32,000 nucleotides of DNA, taken from NCBI GenBank assembly GCA_045544035.1, contig JAZPYE010000007.1:1-32000 (forward strand), read 5' to 3'. The notes under the pieces were generated by a model, which ran no database searches, was not told where the DNA came from, and was given only the letters and a program-made list of their open reading frames with translations. Below, piece by piece: positions 22,101-27,822 of the stretch (position 1 is its first letter; every line of letters begins with the position of its first letter). A program made the position numbers and the translations under genes. The stretch comes from Acutalibacteraceae bacterium (GTDB lineage Bacteria; Bacillota; Clostridia; Oscillospirales; Acutalibacteraceae).

Positions 22101-23429
22101 ATGAAAAAAATAATTTCTTTAATTTTTGCTATTATTTTGTGTTTTAGCCTCACATTCACCCTGGCAGGCTGTAACAAAAAGGAAACAGCGCAGGTTTATT
22201 TTTTAAATTTTAAACCTGAAAGTGCCAAGGTGTACGGTGAAATCGCCAAGGCTTACGAAAAAGAAAAAGGGGTTAAAATTAAGGTTGTAACGGCCTCATC
22301 CGGGGCTTATGAGCAAACCTTAAAATCAGAAATCGCCAAGGATTTTGCCCCCACAATTTTTCAGATTAACGGCCCTGTTGGTTACACCGCCTGGAAGGAT
22401 TACTGTTTAGACCTTAAAGATACCACACTTTATAACATTTTAACCGACAAGGCGCTGGCTGTAAGAGATGGCGATGGCGTTTTTGCCGTTCCTTATGTGG
22501 TTGAGGGCTACGGTATCATTTACAACGGGGAAATTATGGAAAAATATTTTAGTCTTTCTACTAAAAAGACAAAAATATCCTCTACTTCCGAAATTAATTC
22601 CTTTGACGCCCTAAAGGCAGTGGCAGAGGATATGACCGCCCACAAAAAGGAGCTGGGCATTGAGGGCGCCTTTGCCTCCACCTCGCTTATTTCAGGTGAG
22701 GATTGGCGAAGCCACACCCACCTTGCAAACATTCCTATTCACTATGAATTTAAGGACAGCGAAAACGCGCCATTAACCGTTTTGCAAACGGCGGAAATTT
22801 CCTTTAAGCACGCCGATAATTATAAAAAACTGTTTGATTTATTCCTTAACAATTCAGTCACCGAAAAGGGCTTGCTTGGCACAAAATCGGTTGCCGATTC
22901 CATGGCGGAATTCGCCCTCGGCAAAGCGGCAATGGTGCAAAACGGCAGCTGGAGCTATTCCCAAATTGCCGAGGTAAAGGGCAATACCGTAAAGGCGGAT
23001 AAAATTGGCTTTTTGCCTCTTTTTATGGACTTTGAAGGGGAAGAAAACCAGGGCATTTGCATTGGCACCGAAAATTATTTAGCCATTAACAAAAAAGCAA
23101 CTGCCGAACAGCAAAAGGCTTCTCTCGATTTTCTCACATGGCTTTTCACAGAGGAAAACGGCAAGCGTTTTGTAAGTGAGGAGCTGGGCTTTTTGACCCC
23201 GTTTACAACCTTTTCGGCAGAAGATGCGCCAAACGACCCGCTATCAAAAGAGGTTGTTAGGTTTATGAACGATAAAACAAAGGATAATGTGCCCTGGACC
23301 TTCACCTCATTCCCGGGCGAAATTTTCAAAAAGGCATTTGGCGGAGCGCTCCTTGAATATGCTCAAGGGTCAAAGACCTTTGATGATGTTATAAAAACAG
23401 TAAAGGAAAAATGGAAGGAAGCAAGGTGA
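22101..23429 (+). CDS. carbohydrate ABC transporter substrate-binding lipoprotein (CUT1 family)
   Basis: 442-aa ORF. It has a signal peptide with the lipobox LAGC, and the general features of an extracellular solute-binding protein (family 1). It is followed by two permease genes and malQ. Confidence 0.85.
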   Translation: MKKIISLIFAIILCFSLTFTLAGCNKKETAQVYFLNFKPESAKVYGEIAKAYEKEKGVKIKVVTASSGAYEQTLKSEIAKDFAPTIFQINGPVGYTAWKDYCLDLKDTTLYNILTDKALAVRDGDGVFAVPYVVEGYGIIYNGEIMEKYFSLSTKKTKISSTSEINSFDALKAVAEDMTAHKKELGIEGAFASTSLISGEDWRSHTHLANIPIHYEFKDSENAPLTVLQTAEISFKHADNYKKLFDLFLNNSVTEKGLLGTKSVADSMAEFALGKAAMVQNGSWSYSQIAEVKGNTVKADKIGFLPLFMDFEGEENQGICIGTENYLAINKKATAEQQKASLDFLTWLFTEENGKRFVSEELGFLTPFTTFSAEDAPNDPLSKEVVRFMNDKTKDNVPWTFTSFPGEIFKKAFGGALLEYAQGSKTFDDVIKTVKEKWKEAR

Positions 23430-23434
23430 AAGGG

Positions 23435-24298
23435 ATGATTAAACGGGGAAAAGGGGATTTTATAATCTTTGCTCTCCCAACCCTTATCTGTTTTACAGTT
23501 GCCTTCATTATTCCCTTTGTTATGGGGCTTTACCTTTCCTTCACCTCATTTACCACCGTGAGTGATGCCACATTTGTGGGGCTCCAAAATTTTGTAAATA
23601 TTTTTAAAAACGGTGGAGAGTTTTTGGCTTCCCTAAAATTCACCCTGCTTTTCACCCTTGTCAGCGTTTTAACCGTTAATGTTTTCGGTTTCCTGCTTGC
23701 CCTGCTGCTCACCTCATCGGTTCGTGGCAAAACCTTTTATCGCACCGTGTTTTTTATGCCCAACCTCATCGGCGGAATAGTGCTGGGTTACATTTGGCAG
23801 CTGGTGCTTAACGGTATTTTAAGAAATTTCGGAGTAACGCTTACCACAAGCGAGGTTTACGGCTTTTTCGGCCTTATGGTTTTAATGAACTGGCAAATGA
23901 TAGGTTATATGATGGTCATTTTCGTTGCGGGAATTTCCTCACTGCCCACTCAAATGCTGGAGGCGGCAAGGGTGGATGGCGCAAACTATTTCACCACACT
24001 TTTAAGGGTGATTTTGCCCAATTTAAAGGAAAGCTTCACAATTTGCCTTTTCTTAACCCTAACCAATTCCTTTAAACTTTTTGACCAGAACCTAAGCCTT
24101 ACCGGCGGCGCGCCATCGGGAAAAAGCTCAATGCTTGCTCTAAACATTTACGACACGTTTTACGGCAGCGTTGGCAGGGAGGGCCTAGGCCAGGCAAAGG
24201 CGGTAATTTTTTCTATAATTGTTGCCCTTGTGGCGTTTTTACAGTTTTATTTAACCAGAGAAAGGGGCAATAAAAAATGGCAAAAAGAAAAACACTAA
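23435..24298 (+). CDS. carbohydrate ABC transporter permease (MalF/UgpA-like)
   Basis: The ORF has six predicted TM segments and an EAA-loop region (MLEAARVDGANYFTTLLRVILP). An alternative ATG at 23411 overlaps the binding-protein gene by 19 nt. Confidence 0.85.
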   Translation: MIKRGKGDFIIFALPTLICFTVAFIIPFVMGLYLSFTSFTTVSDATFVGLQNFVNIFKNGGEFLASLKFTLLFTLVSVLTVNVFGFLLALLLTSSVRGKTFYRTVFFMPNLIGGIVLGYIWQLVLNGILRNFGVTLTTSEVYGFFGLMVLMNWQMIGYMMVIFVAGISSLPTQMLEAARVDGANYFTTLLRVILPNLKESFTICLFLTLTNSFKLFDQNLSLTGGAPSGKSSMLALNIYDTFYGSVGREGLGQAKAVIFSIIVALVAFLQFYLTRERGNKKWQKEKH

Positions 24299-25110
24299 AC
24301 ATTCTTGCCACCCTTTTGCTCATTTTATTAAGCGCCCTTTTCATTTTTCCCATTGCTGTCATAATAATGAATTCCTTTAAAACAAGGTTTGAAATAAGCA
24401 CGGCGCCCTTCACGCTTCCAAACAGCGACACCTTTGCAGGGCTGGAGAATTATATTACGGGAATCACCGAAACAGGTTTTTTATCTGCCTTTTTTTATTC
24501 CCTTTTCATAACCGTTTTTTCGGTTTTAGCCATTGTTTTTTTTACCTCTCAAACGGCGTGGTACATTGTAAGAAGAAAATCTCGATTTACGAAAACGTTG
24601 TATTACGCCTTTGTGTTTGCAATGGTGGTGCCATTTCAAATGGTTATGTTTACCCTATCGAAAACCGCCAATCTTTTAAATCTTGATTCGCCTTTAGGCC
24701 TCGTTTTTATCTATTTGGGTTTTGGCGCGCCCCTTTCGGTGTTCCTTTTTTGCGGCTTTGTGAAAACGGTGCCGCTGGAAATTGAGCAGGCGGCCTTAGT
24801 TGATGGCTGCGGCAGTGTGAGAACCTTTTTCCTTGTGGTTTTTCCCCTTTTAAAGCCAATTTCCACAACGGTGAGCGTGCTTAACGCTATGTGGATTTGG
24901 AACGACTATCTCCTGCCGTATCTCATTATCGGAAGCGAGTATAAAACCATTCCCATTGCCGTTCAGTACCTTCGCGGCGGCTATGGCTCGGTGGATATGG
25001 GCGCCCTTATGGCGGTGCTCACCCTTTCGGTGGTTCCCGTTGTTATTTTTTATTTTTTCGGACAAAAGTTTATCATCGAGGGGGTGGCGGCAGGTGCAGT
25101 CAAGGGGTAA
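24277..25110 (+). CDS. carbohydrate ABC transporter permease (MalG/UgpE-like)
   Basis: 277-aa ORF with the EAA loop IEQAALVDGCGSVRTFFLVVFPLLKP. It overlaps the upstream permease gene by 22 nt. Confidence 0.9.
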   Translation: MAKRKTLNILATLLLILLSALFIFPIAVIIMNSFKTRFEISTAPFTLPNSDTFAGLENYITGITETGFLSAFFYSLFITVFSVLAIVFFTSQTAWYIVRRKSRFTKTLYYAFVFAMVVPFQMVMFTLSKTANLLNLDSPLGLVFIYLGFGAPLSVFLFCGFVKTVPLEIEQAALVDGCGSVRTFFLVVFPLLKPISTTVSVLNAMWIWNDYLLPYLIIGSEYKTIPIAVQYLRGGYGSVDMGALMAVLTLSVVPVVIFYFFGQKFIIEGVAAGAVKG

Positions 25111-26458
25111 GGGCATTTTGCTCCCCGTTTTTTCCCTGCCGGGTAAGGAGAGGGTTGGCACCCTAGGTGTGGGTGCCCGCTTTTTTATTGATTTTTTAAA
25201 GGAAACGGGGCAAAACTATTGGCAAATTCTCCCCCTGGGCCCCGTAGGGCAGGGCAACTCCCCCTATTCTTCCATTAGCGCCTTTGCAGGCAACGAACTT
25301 TATATTGACCTTGAGGAACTTTATAAAAAAGGGCTTTTAAAAGAAAAGCCCCGGGAAAGTGAAAATACGGGTAGGGTGGATTATAAAACTCTTAAAGCCG
25401 AAAAAATGCCGTGGCTTATTCTCGCGGCAAAGAACTTTAAGCAGGATAAGGAAATTCTTAAATTTTTAAGGGAAAACGATTTTTGGCTTTCAGATTATGC
25501 AAAATATTGTGAAAAAAGGAAAAAAATACCCCAAAACATCACAAAAGTGTTGCAGTTTTTCTTTTTTTCACAGTGGGGAAATATTCGCGGGTATGCAAAC
25601 GAGCGAGGCATTAAAATTATTGGCGATTTGCCCTTTTATGTGGGGGCGAACTCGGTTGACATAATATCTAACCCTAAAAACTTCAGGGTGGGCGAGGATT
25701 TAACCCCTACACTGCTTTCCGGTGTGCCGCCCGATGAGTTTTCAGAGGATGGCCAACTGTGGGAAACACCTGTTTATAATTTTGAAAAACAGCGCACCGA
25801 TGGCTTTAAATTTTGGCGACAAAGGATAAATCAGGCGGCCGCCCTTTATGACTGCGTGCGCCTTGACCATTTTCGTGCCTTTTCCTCCTTTTATGCCGTG
25901 CCTATGGGACAAAAAACCGCCAAAAACGGACAGTGGATTAGGGGTGTGGGTATGCCTTTTTTCGAGGCACTAAAAAAAGAATTTTCAAAAATTCAGGTCA
26001 TTGCTGAGGACCTGGGATTTTCTGATGATGACCTTAAAATGCTTATTGAGAAAACAGGCTTTCCCACAATGAAGGTGCTTCAGTTCGCCTTTGACGGCAG
26101 GGAGGACAACCCCTTTTTGCCTCAAAATTTTGATAAAAACTGTGTGTGTTACACAGGCACCCACGATAACGACACCGCCGCCTCCTGGTATGAAAACGCC
26201 GATGAGAAAACCAAAAAACGGCTACTCCAAATTTGCGGCGATGCGGGCTTTACACCCTGCGAAAAGCTGATAACCCTGGCAATGAAAAGCAGGGCAGACA
26301 CCGTGATAATTCCCTTCGCCGACTACCTTGAAAGGGGAAATGAAGCCCGCATTAACACCCCTGGAAGCGAGAGCGAGGATAATTGGTCCTGGCGGGCAAA
26401 GGAAAGCGATTTCACAGAGGATTTAAAGAAAAAGGTTGGGCGGTTATCGGAGAGGTAA
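25094..26458 (+). CDS. malQ: 4-alpha-glucanotransferase (amylomaltase, GH77)
   Basis: GILLPVFSLPGKERVGTLG, WQILPLGP...NSPYSSISAFAGN, VRLDHFRAF, IIGDLPFYV, VIAEDLG and YTGTHDND are GH77 signatures. The probable start is GTG at 25094 (GAGGGGG upstream). The ORF-track ATG at 24956 lies inside the permease gene. Confidence 0.85.
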   Translation: MQSRGKGILLPVFSLPGKERVGTLGVGARFFIDFLKETGQNYWQILPLGPVGQGNSPYSSISAFAGNELYIDLEELYKKGLLKEKPRESENTGRVDYKTLKAEKMPWLILAAKNFKQDKEILKFLRENDFWLSDYAKYCEKRKKIPQNITKVLQFFFFSQWGNIRGYANERGIKIIGDLPFYVGANSVDIISNPKNFRVGEDLTPTLLSGVPPDEFSEDGQLWETPVYNFEKQRTDGFKFWRQRINQAAALYDCVRLDHFRAFSSFYAVPMGQKTAKNGQWIRGVGMPFFEALKKEFSKIQVIAEDLGFSDDDLKMLIEKTGFPTMKVLQFAFDGREDNPFLPQNFDKNCVCYTGTHDNDTAASWYENADEKTKKRLLQICGDAGFTPCEKLITLAMKSRADTVIIPFADYLERGNEARINTPGSESEDNWSWRAKESDFTEDLKKKVGRLSER

Positions 26459-26487
26459 AAGGGAGGCTTTTACACCCAAAACACTCT

Positions 26488-26521
26488 AAAAAAACAAACC
26501 TCGGCAGAAATGCCGAGGTTT
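26488..26521 (-). terminator. intrinsic terminator of the toxin/immunity operon
   Basis: The minus-strand RNA forms AAACCUCGGCA-UUUC-UGCCGAGGUUU followed by GUUUUUUU. On the plus strand no T-run follows the hairpin. Confidence 0.7.
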
Positions 26522-26549
26522 ACATAATGTTGAGAGCAAATGAATAGTT

Positions 26550-26867
26550 TTATGATATGATTTTATATGTAAAATTGTTTTCTATAGAACTCACTCTATC
26601 AAACACTCTTAACATGATTTTGCACTCTTCTTGCAATTTTTTATCTAATGAATCCAAATTATGTATTTCAACAACATATTTTTCATCATCAAATAAATAT
26701 CTGAGACAATCCCAAAGAGCATCCCAATTTTCGCCGTAATACTGGGGTAAACCAAATTTTTCTTTAAGCATTAAGTGAATTTCGCCTAAATATTTGCATT
26801 TGGAAAAATCTAATATTATAGGGTTTTCGGTTATTTCTTTAAATGCGTGATAATCATTATAATTCAC
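26550..26867 (-). CDS. barstar-family ribonuclease inhibitor (immunity protein)
   Basis: 105-aa ORF with a GTG start. GLPQYYGENWDALWDCL matches barstar ALPEYYGENLDALWDCL, which contains the barnase-contacting Tyr29, Asp35 and Asp39. Its AGGAGG RBS overlaps the toxin stop codon. Confidence 0.85.
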   Translation of the reverse strand: MNYNDYHAFKEITENPIILDFSKCKYLGEIHLMLKEKFGLPQYYGENWDALWDCLRYLFDDEKYVVEIHNLDSLDKKLQEECKIMLRVFDRVSSIENNFTYKIIS

Positions 26868-26878
26868 TTTTTTACCTC

Positions 26879-27448
26879 CTATATAATTTCAAAAAATGTT
26901 TTGTAGTGGTCATATGTTACAAATATTAACCCATCATTTGAATAAACAACTCTCTGATTATTTCTATAACCAAATCTGTAATTTATATCCGCCTCATACC
27001 AAATACGCCCCTCTTTGCTCGGCAAATGACCATTATCATTATAATATTCTCCGCCAAATATCATCTTATCTGGACAAGACATTGATAGATTCGCTAATTT
27101 AGGCATCCAACCATTTGCTTTAGCTTCAGCACTTGTCAAATAATAATTCGGCAATTTTGATTCAAATTTTAAAGTCCAGTCTGCACCGTTTAAACCATTT
27201 ATAGTAGCAGTTCCGGCTTTTACAGTTTTCATAACAAGTATACGACATCTACACATATTATGCAACCTCGGTTCTTTTTCGGGCTTTTCGTTTATAAGCC
27301 ATATTTTTCCGTGGAGACTTCTGCAGTCATAGCAAGTTCTGATGTCTAAGTGAGCTATCCAATTTTTATATCTATTGCTTTCGCCAAAATCCGGTTTCCA
27401 ACTAAAACCATTAATTATTTGCAACAAAAGATAAGCAAAAATATCCAT
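26879..27448 (-). CDS. barnase-type ribonuclease toxin with an N-terminal MuF/SPP1-gp7 domain remnant
   Basis: Residues about 81-189 align end to end with mature barnase. The matches are LPNYYLTSAEAKANGW / LPDNYITKSEAQALGW, GRIWYEADINY / GRTWREADINY (Glu73), YRNNQRVVY / FRNSDRILY (Arg83, Arg87) and YDHYKTF / TDHYQTF (His102). Residues about 27-72, NWIAHLDIRTCYDCRSLHGKIW...PRLHNMCRCRI, match the C-terminal W..D.RTC..C..L.G...H..CRC motif of phage head-morphogenesis (Mu F / SPP1 gp7) proteins. Confidence 0.8.
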   Translation of the reverse strand: MDIFAYLLLQIINGFSWKPDFGESNRYKNWIAHLDIRTCYDCRSLHGKIWLINEKPEKEPRLHNMCRCRILVMKTVKAGTATINGLNGADWTLKFESKLPNYYLTSAEAKANGWMPKLANLSMSCPDKMIFGGEYYNDNGHLPSKEGRIWYEADINYRFGYRNNQRVVYSNDGLIFVTYDHYKTFFEII

Positions 27449-27471
27449 AAATACACCTCCTTCTAGAAACT

Positions 27472-27500
27472 ATTTTAAGTTTAAAAAAATGGACATACAA
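27472..27500 (-). promoter_or_regulatory. candidate sigma-A promoter of the toxin/immunity operon
   Basis: The minus strand has TTGTAT (plus 27495-27500), a 17-nt spacer, then TAAAAT (plus 27472-27477). A GGAGGTG RBS sits 7 nt before the ATG at 27448. Confidence 0.45.
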
Positions 27501-27706
27501 CGACATCTTTGCGACATTTTTTAAAAATATAAACGTTTTAAAAATGTAGCCTCAACGGGATACTCTGCGCTGCTTGATTTTTCGACCGTTCCGAACGGTT
27601 GCGAAAAATCTGCGTTGCTCGAGACTTCACAGTCCGAAAAGGCTATCGCGCCTTTTCGGCTGCTTCGACGAACCCCTCGGGGTCCTCATCCCTTAAAGCG
27701 CGAATA

Positions 27707-27745: not shown

Positions 27746-27822
27746 TGGCGCGCTTTAAGGGATTCGAACCCCTGACCTTTTGGTCCGTAGCCAAACGCTC
27801 TATCCAGCTGAGCTAAAAGCGC
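27746..27822 (-). tRNA. tRNA-Arg (anticodon ACG), CCA encoded
   Basis: The minus strand reads GCGCTTT-TA-GCTC-AGCTGGATA-GAGC-G-TTTGG-CTACGGA-CCAAA-AGGTC-AGGGG-TTCGAAT-CCCTT-AAAGCGC-G-CCA. This folds into a clean cloverleaf with anticodon loop CU-ACG-GA. The 61-aa ORF 27643..27828 is its translation shadow. Confidence 0.92.

Follow-up and report, generated by a model that had tools for sequence, protein, structure and literature searches.

Introduction

The MuF toxins described to date are genes of prophage head modules, in which MuF regions of 250-320 residues carry varied toxin tips (PMC5576092, PMC11699363, PMC12226406), and Tox-Barnase with Imm-Barstar is listed among the MuF-associated toxins (PMC3482391). 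The literature links muf genes systematically to head genes, and the published criteria for a MuF polymorphic toxin combine the MuF1-4 profiles (PF04233, PF06152, MuF3 and MuF4), a head-module site after the portal gene, a toxin extension of at least 100 amino acids (aa) and a small downstream open reading frame (ORF) (PMC5576092). Here we describe a toxin gene at 26879-27448 of a 32-kb stretch of an Acutalibacteraceae genome (contig JAZPYE010000007.1, positions 1 to 32,000; hereafter the window), which encodes a short MuF-related domain (mini-MuF) fused to a barnase-type ribonuclease (RNase), and which is followed by a barstar gene. An original prediction, made from the letters of this DNA, had drawn attention to the first 72 codons of the gene and offered two readings of them, either a prophage remnant or a minimal zinc-knuckle plus RNase architecture that works without a capsid.

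Like the MuF polymorphic toxins (PMC3482391, PMC5576092), including Apk2 and Bxa (PMC12226406, PMC11699363), the cassette joins a MuF-related N-terminus to a C-terminal toxin and has a small immunity gene immediately downstream. The C-terminal extension, a barnase spanning residues 80-189, is longer than 100 aa, and the downstream immunity ORF encodes a 105-aa barstar 12 nt away, with a barstar within ~15 bp 3' of the toxin in 78 of 79 related loci. The cassette toxin differs from these proteins in having ~50 MuF-core and 25 clade-specific residues instead of 250-320, and its gene lies neither behind a portal gene nor in a head module but in the dnaA-dnaN-recF-gyrBA region, as a member of a family that is chromosomal in gut Oscillospirales. 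Compared with polymorphic toxins generally, there is no variety of toxin domains behind the N-terminal domain, with barnase alone found among 146 representatives in a single-sequence HMMER search. Since head-module location and toxin polymorphism both fail, and only half of the Pfam domain is present, we set the cassette family apart from the MuF toxins; a short, non-phage MuF-barnase form was not described in the literature that we searched.

The two halves of the toxin each have a well-known counterpart. With SPP1 gp7 and Mu gpF (PF04233) the N-terminal domain shares the W..D.RTC..C..L.G ... PP.H.NCRC core and a predicted fold match, whereas those are head proteins of 300-450 aa encoded beside the portal gene, and gp7 has no attached toxin. 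With the barnase-barstar pair of Bacillus amyloliquefaciens the cassette shares an RNase of 46% identity, the fold and the Glu/Arg/Arg/His residues, the D35/D39 motif of barstar, the toxin-then-immunity order and, possibly, a link to Spo0A control (PMC7604891). The cassette pair differs in that K27 of barnase is not kept, and in being mobile and accompanied by immunity arrays. Barnase has a Sec signal and a propeptide, and a folded zinc-type domain stands in their place in the cassette toxin.

The reading that we favour, and to which we assign a probability of roughly 0.55, is that of a self-contained, horizontally spread toxin-immunity cassette for antagonism, tied to Spo0A and released by lysis, in which the mini-MuF domain would be a nucleic-acid-binding or targeting handle. 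The features on which the argument turns are as follows.

26548-27510, minus strand: conserved cassette block, comprising 62 bp of promoter, toxin and barstar (limits of DNA homology to relatives)
26879-27448, minus strand: toxin gene (mini-MuF domain fused to barnase), 189 aa plus stop
27215-27448, minus strand: N-terminal domain, residues 1-78, net basic, with a helix at 3-13 and strands at 21-32, 49-51 and 68-76
27218-27376, minus strand: stretch homologous to the MuF/SPP1 gp7 C-terminal core, residues 25-77 (Pfam, PHROG, tblastn, Foldseek, phmmer)
26882-27211, minus strand: barnase domain, residues 80-189 (Pfam and alignment to PDB barnase)
26550-26867, minus strand: barstar immunity gene, 105 aa, starting 12 nt past the toxin stop

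Results and discussion

The N-terminal domain descends from the C-terminal core of MuF proteins

The original prediction held that the N-terminus encoded at 27233-27448 (codons 1-72 of the minus-strand toxin ORF) is only the tail end of a MuF domain, and profile searches, comparison with a canonical MuF protein and a fold search all agree with it. The Pfam family PF04233 (Phage_Mu_F) aligns to toxin residues 25-70 over positions 63-111 of its 112-position profile; the toxin lacks half of this domain and all of the MuF region upstream of it. The whole toxin scores 29.3 bits (E = 1.6e-6; cut-off 29.6), and the Pfam search that had been proposed for the N-terminus gives 31.3 bits on the N-terminal 86 aa alone. 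Residues 26-77 are also matched by at least eight PHROG families of head-morphogenesis or minor-head proteins, with best E values of 5e-10 to 6e-9; in each case the aligned part is a central stretch of a profile that has 500-1000 positions. A tblastn search of 50,697 phage genomes returned a single weak match, a canonical 371-aa MuF protein in MT836429, where the gene order is large terminase, portal, MuF, a 241-aa ORF and a major-capsid-like gene. Its motif KWLSTLDGRTSSQCRSLDG...PPLHHNCRS aligns with NWIAHLDIRTCYDCRSLHG...PRLHNMCRC of the toxin and, used as a phmmer query, this MuF protein matched 44 toxin ORFs of related loci (best 1.2e-9).

Residues 1-80 folded alone give an AlphaFold model with a predicted local distance difference test score (pLDDT) of 90. 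In a Foldseek search of BFVD with the N-terminal domain model, about a third of the top 50 matches are unnamed and nearly all the others are MuF, minor-capsid or head-morphogenesis proteins, superposed over ~50 columns at ~2 Å root-mean-square deviation. Neither sequence nor fold matched a solved structure; a 'minor capsid protein' in the cryo-electron microscopy structure of XM1 was set aside as MuF evidence, as it is a decoration protein and uninformative on MuF. A word-indexed search with the N-terminus alone returned 11 fragments and nothing more. Because PHROGs, tblastn, phmmer and the fold search agree, the MuF match is more than the fluke of one model. The homology of residues 25-77 to the C-terminal core of MuF/SPP1-gp7 proteins, and only to that part, is solid, and the N-terminal domain descends from this core and now forms a clade of its own.

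Within the domain, C39, C42, H63 and C68 show no variation, and C66 is kept in at least 90% of sequences, the most divergent members included, which suggests that C39, C42, H63, C66 and C68 are putative zinc ligands. The first 24-26 residues had been taken as unrelated to the rest, and here the original prediction does not hold: the first 24 are as conserved as the remainder (mean column conservation 0.65 versus 0.67-0.75) and in the AlphaFold2 model supply the helix and first strand of the same domain.

The C-terminal domain is a barnase and the downstream gene a barstar

That the MuF tail is fused to a barnase-type RNase with a barstar downstream is upheld by domain and structure comparisons. 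The Pfam Ribonuclease family PF00545 matches toxin residues 98-187 (E 4.6e-10), and residues 83-188 align without gaps to residues 4-109 of PDB barnase (E 5e-27, 46% identity), with a TM-score of 0.83-0.87 (barnase length). Toxin residues E152, R162, R166 and H181 correspond to barnase E73, R83, R87 and H102, and the catalytic Glu/Arg/Arg/His set is thus complete. The barstar matches PF01337 (E = 8.5e-20), the sole domain found in it, and keeps the D35/D39 motif (ENWDALWD), with YYGEN.DALWD retained in the alignment to PDB barstar.

The two toxin domains are joined by the five-residue linker AGTAT, of which G79, A81 and T82 are invariant, and the model of the full toxin is one confident body (pLDDT 94, predicted template modelling score 0.88). 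Pairwise comparison of 20 family members gives ratios of nonsynonymous to synonymous substitution rates (dN/dS) of 0.171 in the N-terminal domain (residues 1-78) and 0.173 in the barnase; purifying selection acts equally on the two.

Residues 1-95, which take in the first 15 barnase residues, served as a single-sequence query in an exhaustive HMMER search of 1.84 billion representatives and gave 232 matches. In the best 150 of these the domain stands at the N-terminus of short proteins; the only long entries are one of 436 aa, extended at its C-terminus, and two repeat proteins of more than 1,400 aa that are spurious matches. No other toxin domain lies behind the N-terminal domain among the 146 representatives, of which the informative ones run into barnase or a truncated tail. 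The N-terminal domain is strictly coupled to barnase. Its basic character, its rigid packing against the RNase and its exclusive pairing with barnase suggest that the two constitute one functional unit.

A few cluster representatives depart from the usual layout. In P0182, P0199, P0246, P0247, P0277 and P0272 the N-terminal domain, itself also shortened in P0272, is joined straight to only the last 30-55 barnase residues, and the tails of P0131, P0180 and P0225, which are not barnase, may have arisen by deletions that fused toxin to barstar. These short-tailed and odd-tailed forms are either real variants or products of assembly or decay. P0258 (L093 1215-2525; 436 aa) combines a mini-MuF domain and a shortened barnase with a C-terminal phage lysozyme domain (PF00959), and its sole source is a 2.5-kb contig.

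The short form is a conserved family of gut Clostridia

The full toxin has 1,551 homologues (protein clusters), the best 120 of which are 52-100% identical to it, nearly all 187-191 aa long and with the same two Pfam domains; 100 of the homologue sequences fetched measure 185-195 aa. A look-up with the exact toxin sequence found no record. Longer database entries (208-226 aa) were rejected as longer forms, being start-codon miscalls that read through the promoter. In a scan of one genome per species, relatives are encoded in 518 species genomes, and the best 79 loci of the 518 stretches were analysed for their contexts. Nearly all of these 79 come from human and ruminant gut metagenome-assembled genomes assigned to Acutalibacteraceae, Ruminococcaceae, Oscillospiraceae or unclassified Clostridia, and two or three toxin copies are present in several genomes. 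The form of ~189 aa is thus a conserved family, present in hundreds of gut Clostridia species and almost always outside phages.

This distribution bears directly on the prophage-remnant reading, in which the 5' part of a full-length MuF-barnase gene was lost recently and what remains is expressed by chance. In its favour, other MuF toxins are encoded by prophages (PMC5576092), and the local G+C is low beside a tRNA gene. Against this, length and start are kept in hundreds of species, the dN/dS of the N-terminal domain is 0.17, and the first 24 residues, the ribosome-binding site and the promoter are all conserved, while the copies carried by phages are equally short. Full-length MuF-barnase relatives, which the original prediction proposed to align in search of the truncation point, were found neither in the top 120 of the 1,551 homologues nor in the best 150 HMMER matches, the 50,697 phage genomes or IMG/VR. 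The DNA upstream of the gene is promoter, structured non-coding element and tRNA-Arg, in which no MuF-like coding debris was found. A recent truncation is therefore very improbable, and the data fit the other reading of the original prediction, a minimal zinc-knuckle plus RNase architecture with no linked capsid module. The outcome named as refuting the original prediction, that the short N-terminus is a widespread stand-alone domain unrelated to phage heads, stands in its first part and falls in its second, since the domain is widespread and stand-alone and yet truly MuF-related. Separately, the closest relative in the genome set (L017 4747-5238, 90% identity) lacks the first 26 codons and has upstream DNA unlike the cassette promoter, and may be a 5'-replaced or truncated copy.

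DNA similarity to relatives located in unrelated contexts is confined to the 0.96 kb between 27510 and 26548, and this block has a G+C content of 28-37% versus roughly 45% in the flanks. A search for transposon-like terminal repeats around the cassette gave only AT-rich chance repeats. The three annotated contexts are mutually different and all housekeeping. The Pfam families found in the 135 nearest neighbours number 155, with HTH_3, the most frequent, seen six times. No portal, terminase or capsid family recurs among these 135 neighbours, and the TerL, portal, capsid and tail hallmark proteins of three phages have no match in 3,896 flanking ORFs. The statement that portal, terminase, capsid and integrase genes are not nearby likewise stands, as none of the genes of the window is a phage gene.

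Immunity gene arrays and the case for antagonism

Around ten of the 79 loci have extra or orphan barstars, with one to four barstars per locus, and tandem toxin-barstar modules are found in four (L031, L055, L078 and L082). An identical toxin (P0014) at the same chromosomal site (10589-11961 in L001-L005) is accompanied by 1, 3 or 4 tandem barstar paralogues depending on the strain, and the number of immunity copies turns over fast. In five species representatives the toxin is killed by a single nonsense mutation while the barstar beside it is intact:

L046, 8001-8570: nonsense-killed toxin
L069, 7983-8545: nonsense-killed toxin
L087, 7983-8552: nonsense-killed toxin
L030, 14-600: nonsense-killed toxin
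L032, 8001-8585: nonsense-killed toxin

The stop codons are TGA at the codons of C66 or W91, TAG and TAA, with L030 and L032 sharing a TAA at codon 146. Slippage or recoding of apparently frameshifted members was ruled out in the five disrupted copies inspected, as the breaks are single nonsense mutations.

Polymorphic-toxin work links such arrays, orphan immunity genes and toxin-first order to toxins that reach other cells (PMC3482391). The main alternative for a pair of this kind is an intracellular toxin-antitoxin or abortive-infection module, in which a barnase held by barstar would be freed on phage infection or stress and the MuF-like domain would act as a sensor or decoy for head proteins. 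A compact two-gene operon with its own promoter, the lack of a detected export signal, and scattered chromosomal sites with occasional phage carriage as an insert would all suit such a module. Unlike type II toxin-antitoxin modules, however, the cassette has its toxin gene first, and a Pfam search finds no DNA-binding domain in barstar; extra and orphan barstar arrays of strain-variable number point instead to defence against incoming toxins. Moreover, neither toxin nor barstar matches any of the 5,027 defence-system models of PADLOC-DB v2 at E up to 1. Antagonism is favoured over the intracellular role because of the barstar arrays, the orphan barstars, the variation in copy number between strains and the toxin-first order, and we regard the intracellular role as doubtful.

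Phage-borne copies and the possibility of capsid loading

Only two loci in 2.9 million viral contigs (IMG/VR) hold the family, L094 (7923-8845) and L095 (7959-8501), and their toxins are also short (200 and 181 aa). L094 is an HK97-like siphophage in which the portal gene is followed directly by a protease-capsid gene, with no MuF gene. Its cassette is located in the tail module between the tail chaperone and tape-measure genes, on the opposite strand, and thus looks like an insert and not a head gene. The toxin gene of L095 comes after an internal-virion-protein-like gene and an amidase gene.

These copies, together with the nature of the homology, raise the idea that the mini-MuF domain represents the smallest form of a portal- or DNA-binding tag of MuF, and that it loads a chromosomal RNase in trans into phage heads, to be injected into the next cell. 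The homology is specific to the sole universally conserved part of MuF, gp7 reaches the procapsid through the portal and binds DNA (PMC6316719), and the toxin shows no export signal; the absence of a MuF gene after the portal in L094, the position of the L095 toxin behind an internal-virion-protein-like gene and the fusion of the P0258 variant to a phage lysozyme would also agree with such a role. On the other hand, more than 99% of the copies lie well away from phage genes, the toxin lacks the ~200 N-terminal residues of MuF, which may include the portal-binding part, and the domain is coupled to barnase only, unlike a generic trafficking domain. The L094 cassette, insert-like on the opposite strand of a tail module, is likewise not what this idea predicts. 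We consider loading of this kind unlikely, if the strongest of the competing explanations, and more doubtful still its fuller form, in which a Spo0A-timed chromosomal RNase rides in trans in the heads of released phages by means of a minimal capsid-loading tag. If that were true, ordinary phages would act as vehicles for a toxin of bacterial origin, or the poisoning of progeny virions would serve as a defence. For the role of the N-terminal domain, a nucleic-acid-binding or targeting surface ranks somewhat ahead of a capsid-loading tag.

The promoter carries tandem candidate Spo0A boxes

Expression of the cassette would start from the following elements.

27454-27460, minus strand: ribosome-binding site GGAGGTG, 5 nt ahead of the ATG and kept across related loci
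27472-27477, minus strand: -10 element TAAAAT, 11 nt below the last TGTCG-type box; relatives have TATAAT at equal spacing
27489-27516, minus strand: three TGTCG-type boxes over the -35 region, a candidate tandem Spo0A (0A-box) site (sequence and conservation in relatives)
27516-27510, minus strand: first box, TGTCGCA
27505-27499, minus strand: second box, TGTCGTT
27495-27489, minus strand: third box, TGTCCAT, with G5 changed to C, 3 bp from the second

The GGAGGTG ribosome-binding site of the original prediction (27460-27454) is confirmed by its conservation in relatives. Of the TTGTAT-17-TAAAAT promoter proposed with it, the -10 element TAAAAT (27477-27472) is conserved; the TTGTAT part matches TTGACA at three of six positions and overlaps the conserved repeat motif, and is a weak -35. 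The upstream DNA of relatives reads AAAGATGTCGGTGAATGTCG, then 11 nt, then TATAAT, with the motif perfect even at 52% protein identity, and the box consensus ATGTCGGTGAATGTCG is found at a fixed distance in relatives down to that same identity. The motif can be read as TGTCGGT-GAA-TGTCGnn, two 7-bp boxes with a 3 bp gap, and its variants keep TGNCG.

The Spo0A box is TGTCGAA, contacted by the protein at G2, C4 and G5 (PMC3485338), and footprinting has shown Spo0A bound to a pair of imperfect boxes separated by 3 bp (PMC2731898); in B. amyloliquefaciens the synthesis of barnase depends on Spo0A (PMC7604891). The tandem boxes over the -35 region are accordingly put forward as a candidate Spo0A site, drawn from the architecture of the motif only. 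By-eye comparison with consensus sequences led us to drop sigma-H, sigma-G and LexA readings, the tandem 0A-box layout fitting best.

A regulator encoded within the cassette would be another way to account for the motif. The strict pattern ATGTC[GC]-N4-ATGTC occurs 32 times in the 1.16 Mb of loci, in each case upstream of a toxin gene, as would be expected if the mini-MuF domain were a DNA-binding autorepressor of the ATGTCG repeats in its own promoter, in the style of toxin-antitoxin modules, with regulator and site moving together; gp7, too, binds DNA (PMC6316719). The looser tandem TGTCG-N5-TGTCG, however, has 42 sites in the same 1.16 Mb (1.3 in shuffles), 31 of them at cassette promoters, and the 11 others collapse to ~6 distinct sites, those whose neighbours were checked being intergenic. 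Distant subfamilies, moreover, keep the N-terminal domain and yet have ordinary TTGACA promoters with no boxes. Self-regulation is improbable on these grounds, and because tandem boxes also occur at other intergenic sites we favour a host regulator. The non-cassette tandem boxes are at ~2285-2380 in L001-L005, 303 in L033, 7426 in L014, 153 and 2195 in L028, 6645 in L062 and 12098 in L051; that at L001 2285, TGTCGTTTTTTGTCGAA, lies ~108 bp upstream of a gene for a dockerin/SH3 protein. They may belong to the same Spo0A-like regulon.

The skf and sdp 'cannibalism' operons of Bacillus subtilis encode Spo0A-controlled killing factors, peptide toxins that have export systems of their own. Should the tandem 0A-type boxes prove real, the cassette would resemble these operons in placing a toxin and its immunity under the sporulation master regulator; it differs from them in that its toxin is an unrelated RNase, for which export genes were not found.

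Genomic neighbourhood of the cassette

The window covers a replication-origin neighbourhood with dnaA, dnaN, recF, gyrB, gyrA, thrS, pth, a sugar ABC transporter and a 4-alpha-glucanotransferase gene. The cassette is placed between tRNA-Arg(ACG) and the convergent 4-alpha-glucanotransferase gene, ~5 kb from dnaA (window 27746-27822 and 26450-27650), and is followed by one further feature.

26494-26523, minus strand: terminator-like hairpin 3' of barstar, outside the conserved cassette block and facing the convergent 4-alpha-glucanotransferase gene

A conserved structured element of ~140 nt (window 27551-27692), read on the minus strand, stands between the tRNA-Arg terminator and the toxin promoter, outside the cassette. 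Copies of it occur at L017 3907-4125 (inverted relative to the toxin), L038 7653-7791 and L046 15980-16090, the last adjoining a tRNA and situated 8 kb away from the toxin. Of the 47 pairs in the consensus fold, 12 show compensatory changes; the element has no Rfam match at E up to 1, and the upstream region gave tRNA-Arg only. In L038 the same element and a sugar ABC transporter locus are near the cassette in an order different from that of the window, and the transporter locus resembles window 22177-25110 (65% DNA identity).

A model for the function of the cassette

In the favoured model the cassette serves antagonism between bacteria. Barstar made from the same operon would block the RNase in the producer, and neighbours with no matching barstar would be hit; if such barstar-less neighbours are the targets, the immunity arrays are explained. 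Transcription would be tied through the tandem TGTCG boxes to the stationary-phase and sporulation regulator Spo0A, by activation or repression. The toxin would probably be released by cell lysis, possibly timed by Spo0A, a route that we infer because no export signal was found. The mini-MuF domain, as one unit with the RNase, would be a nucleic-acid-binding or targeting handle and not a head-assembly protein; it retains the part of MuF that SPP1 gp7 may use for binding to DNA or portal.

Several observations weigh against this model. Searches of the toxin and its linked genes found no signal peptide, secretion domain or exporter genes, and a two-gene operon scattered in chromosomes and carried as a phage insert also resembles a toxin-antitoxin or abortive-infection module. 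The toxin has S106 at the position of barnase K27. Positions 6-7 of the boxes deviate from TGTCGAA, in a Spo0A assignment made from motif architecture, and the neighbour scans, which covered the nearest genes and used single-sequence searches, may miss rare prophage contexts.

MuF toxins are widespread, yet the role of the MuF domain and the route by which the toxins reach their targets have never been shown. In the family described here, a MuF-core piece of ~78 residues has been retained by evolution as a working unit that occurs outside phages, across hundreds of species of gut Clostridia. The mini-MuF domain therewith offers a small, tractable natural construct for asking about binding of zinc, DNA or RNA, or portal, about capsid loading and about tuning of the RNase. 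With this family, the gut Oscillospirales also have an abundant barnase/barstar cassette that would serve in competition, and the sporulation regulator may set its timing.

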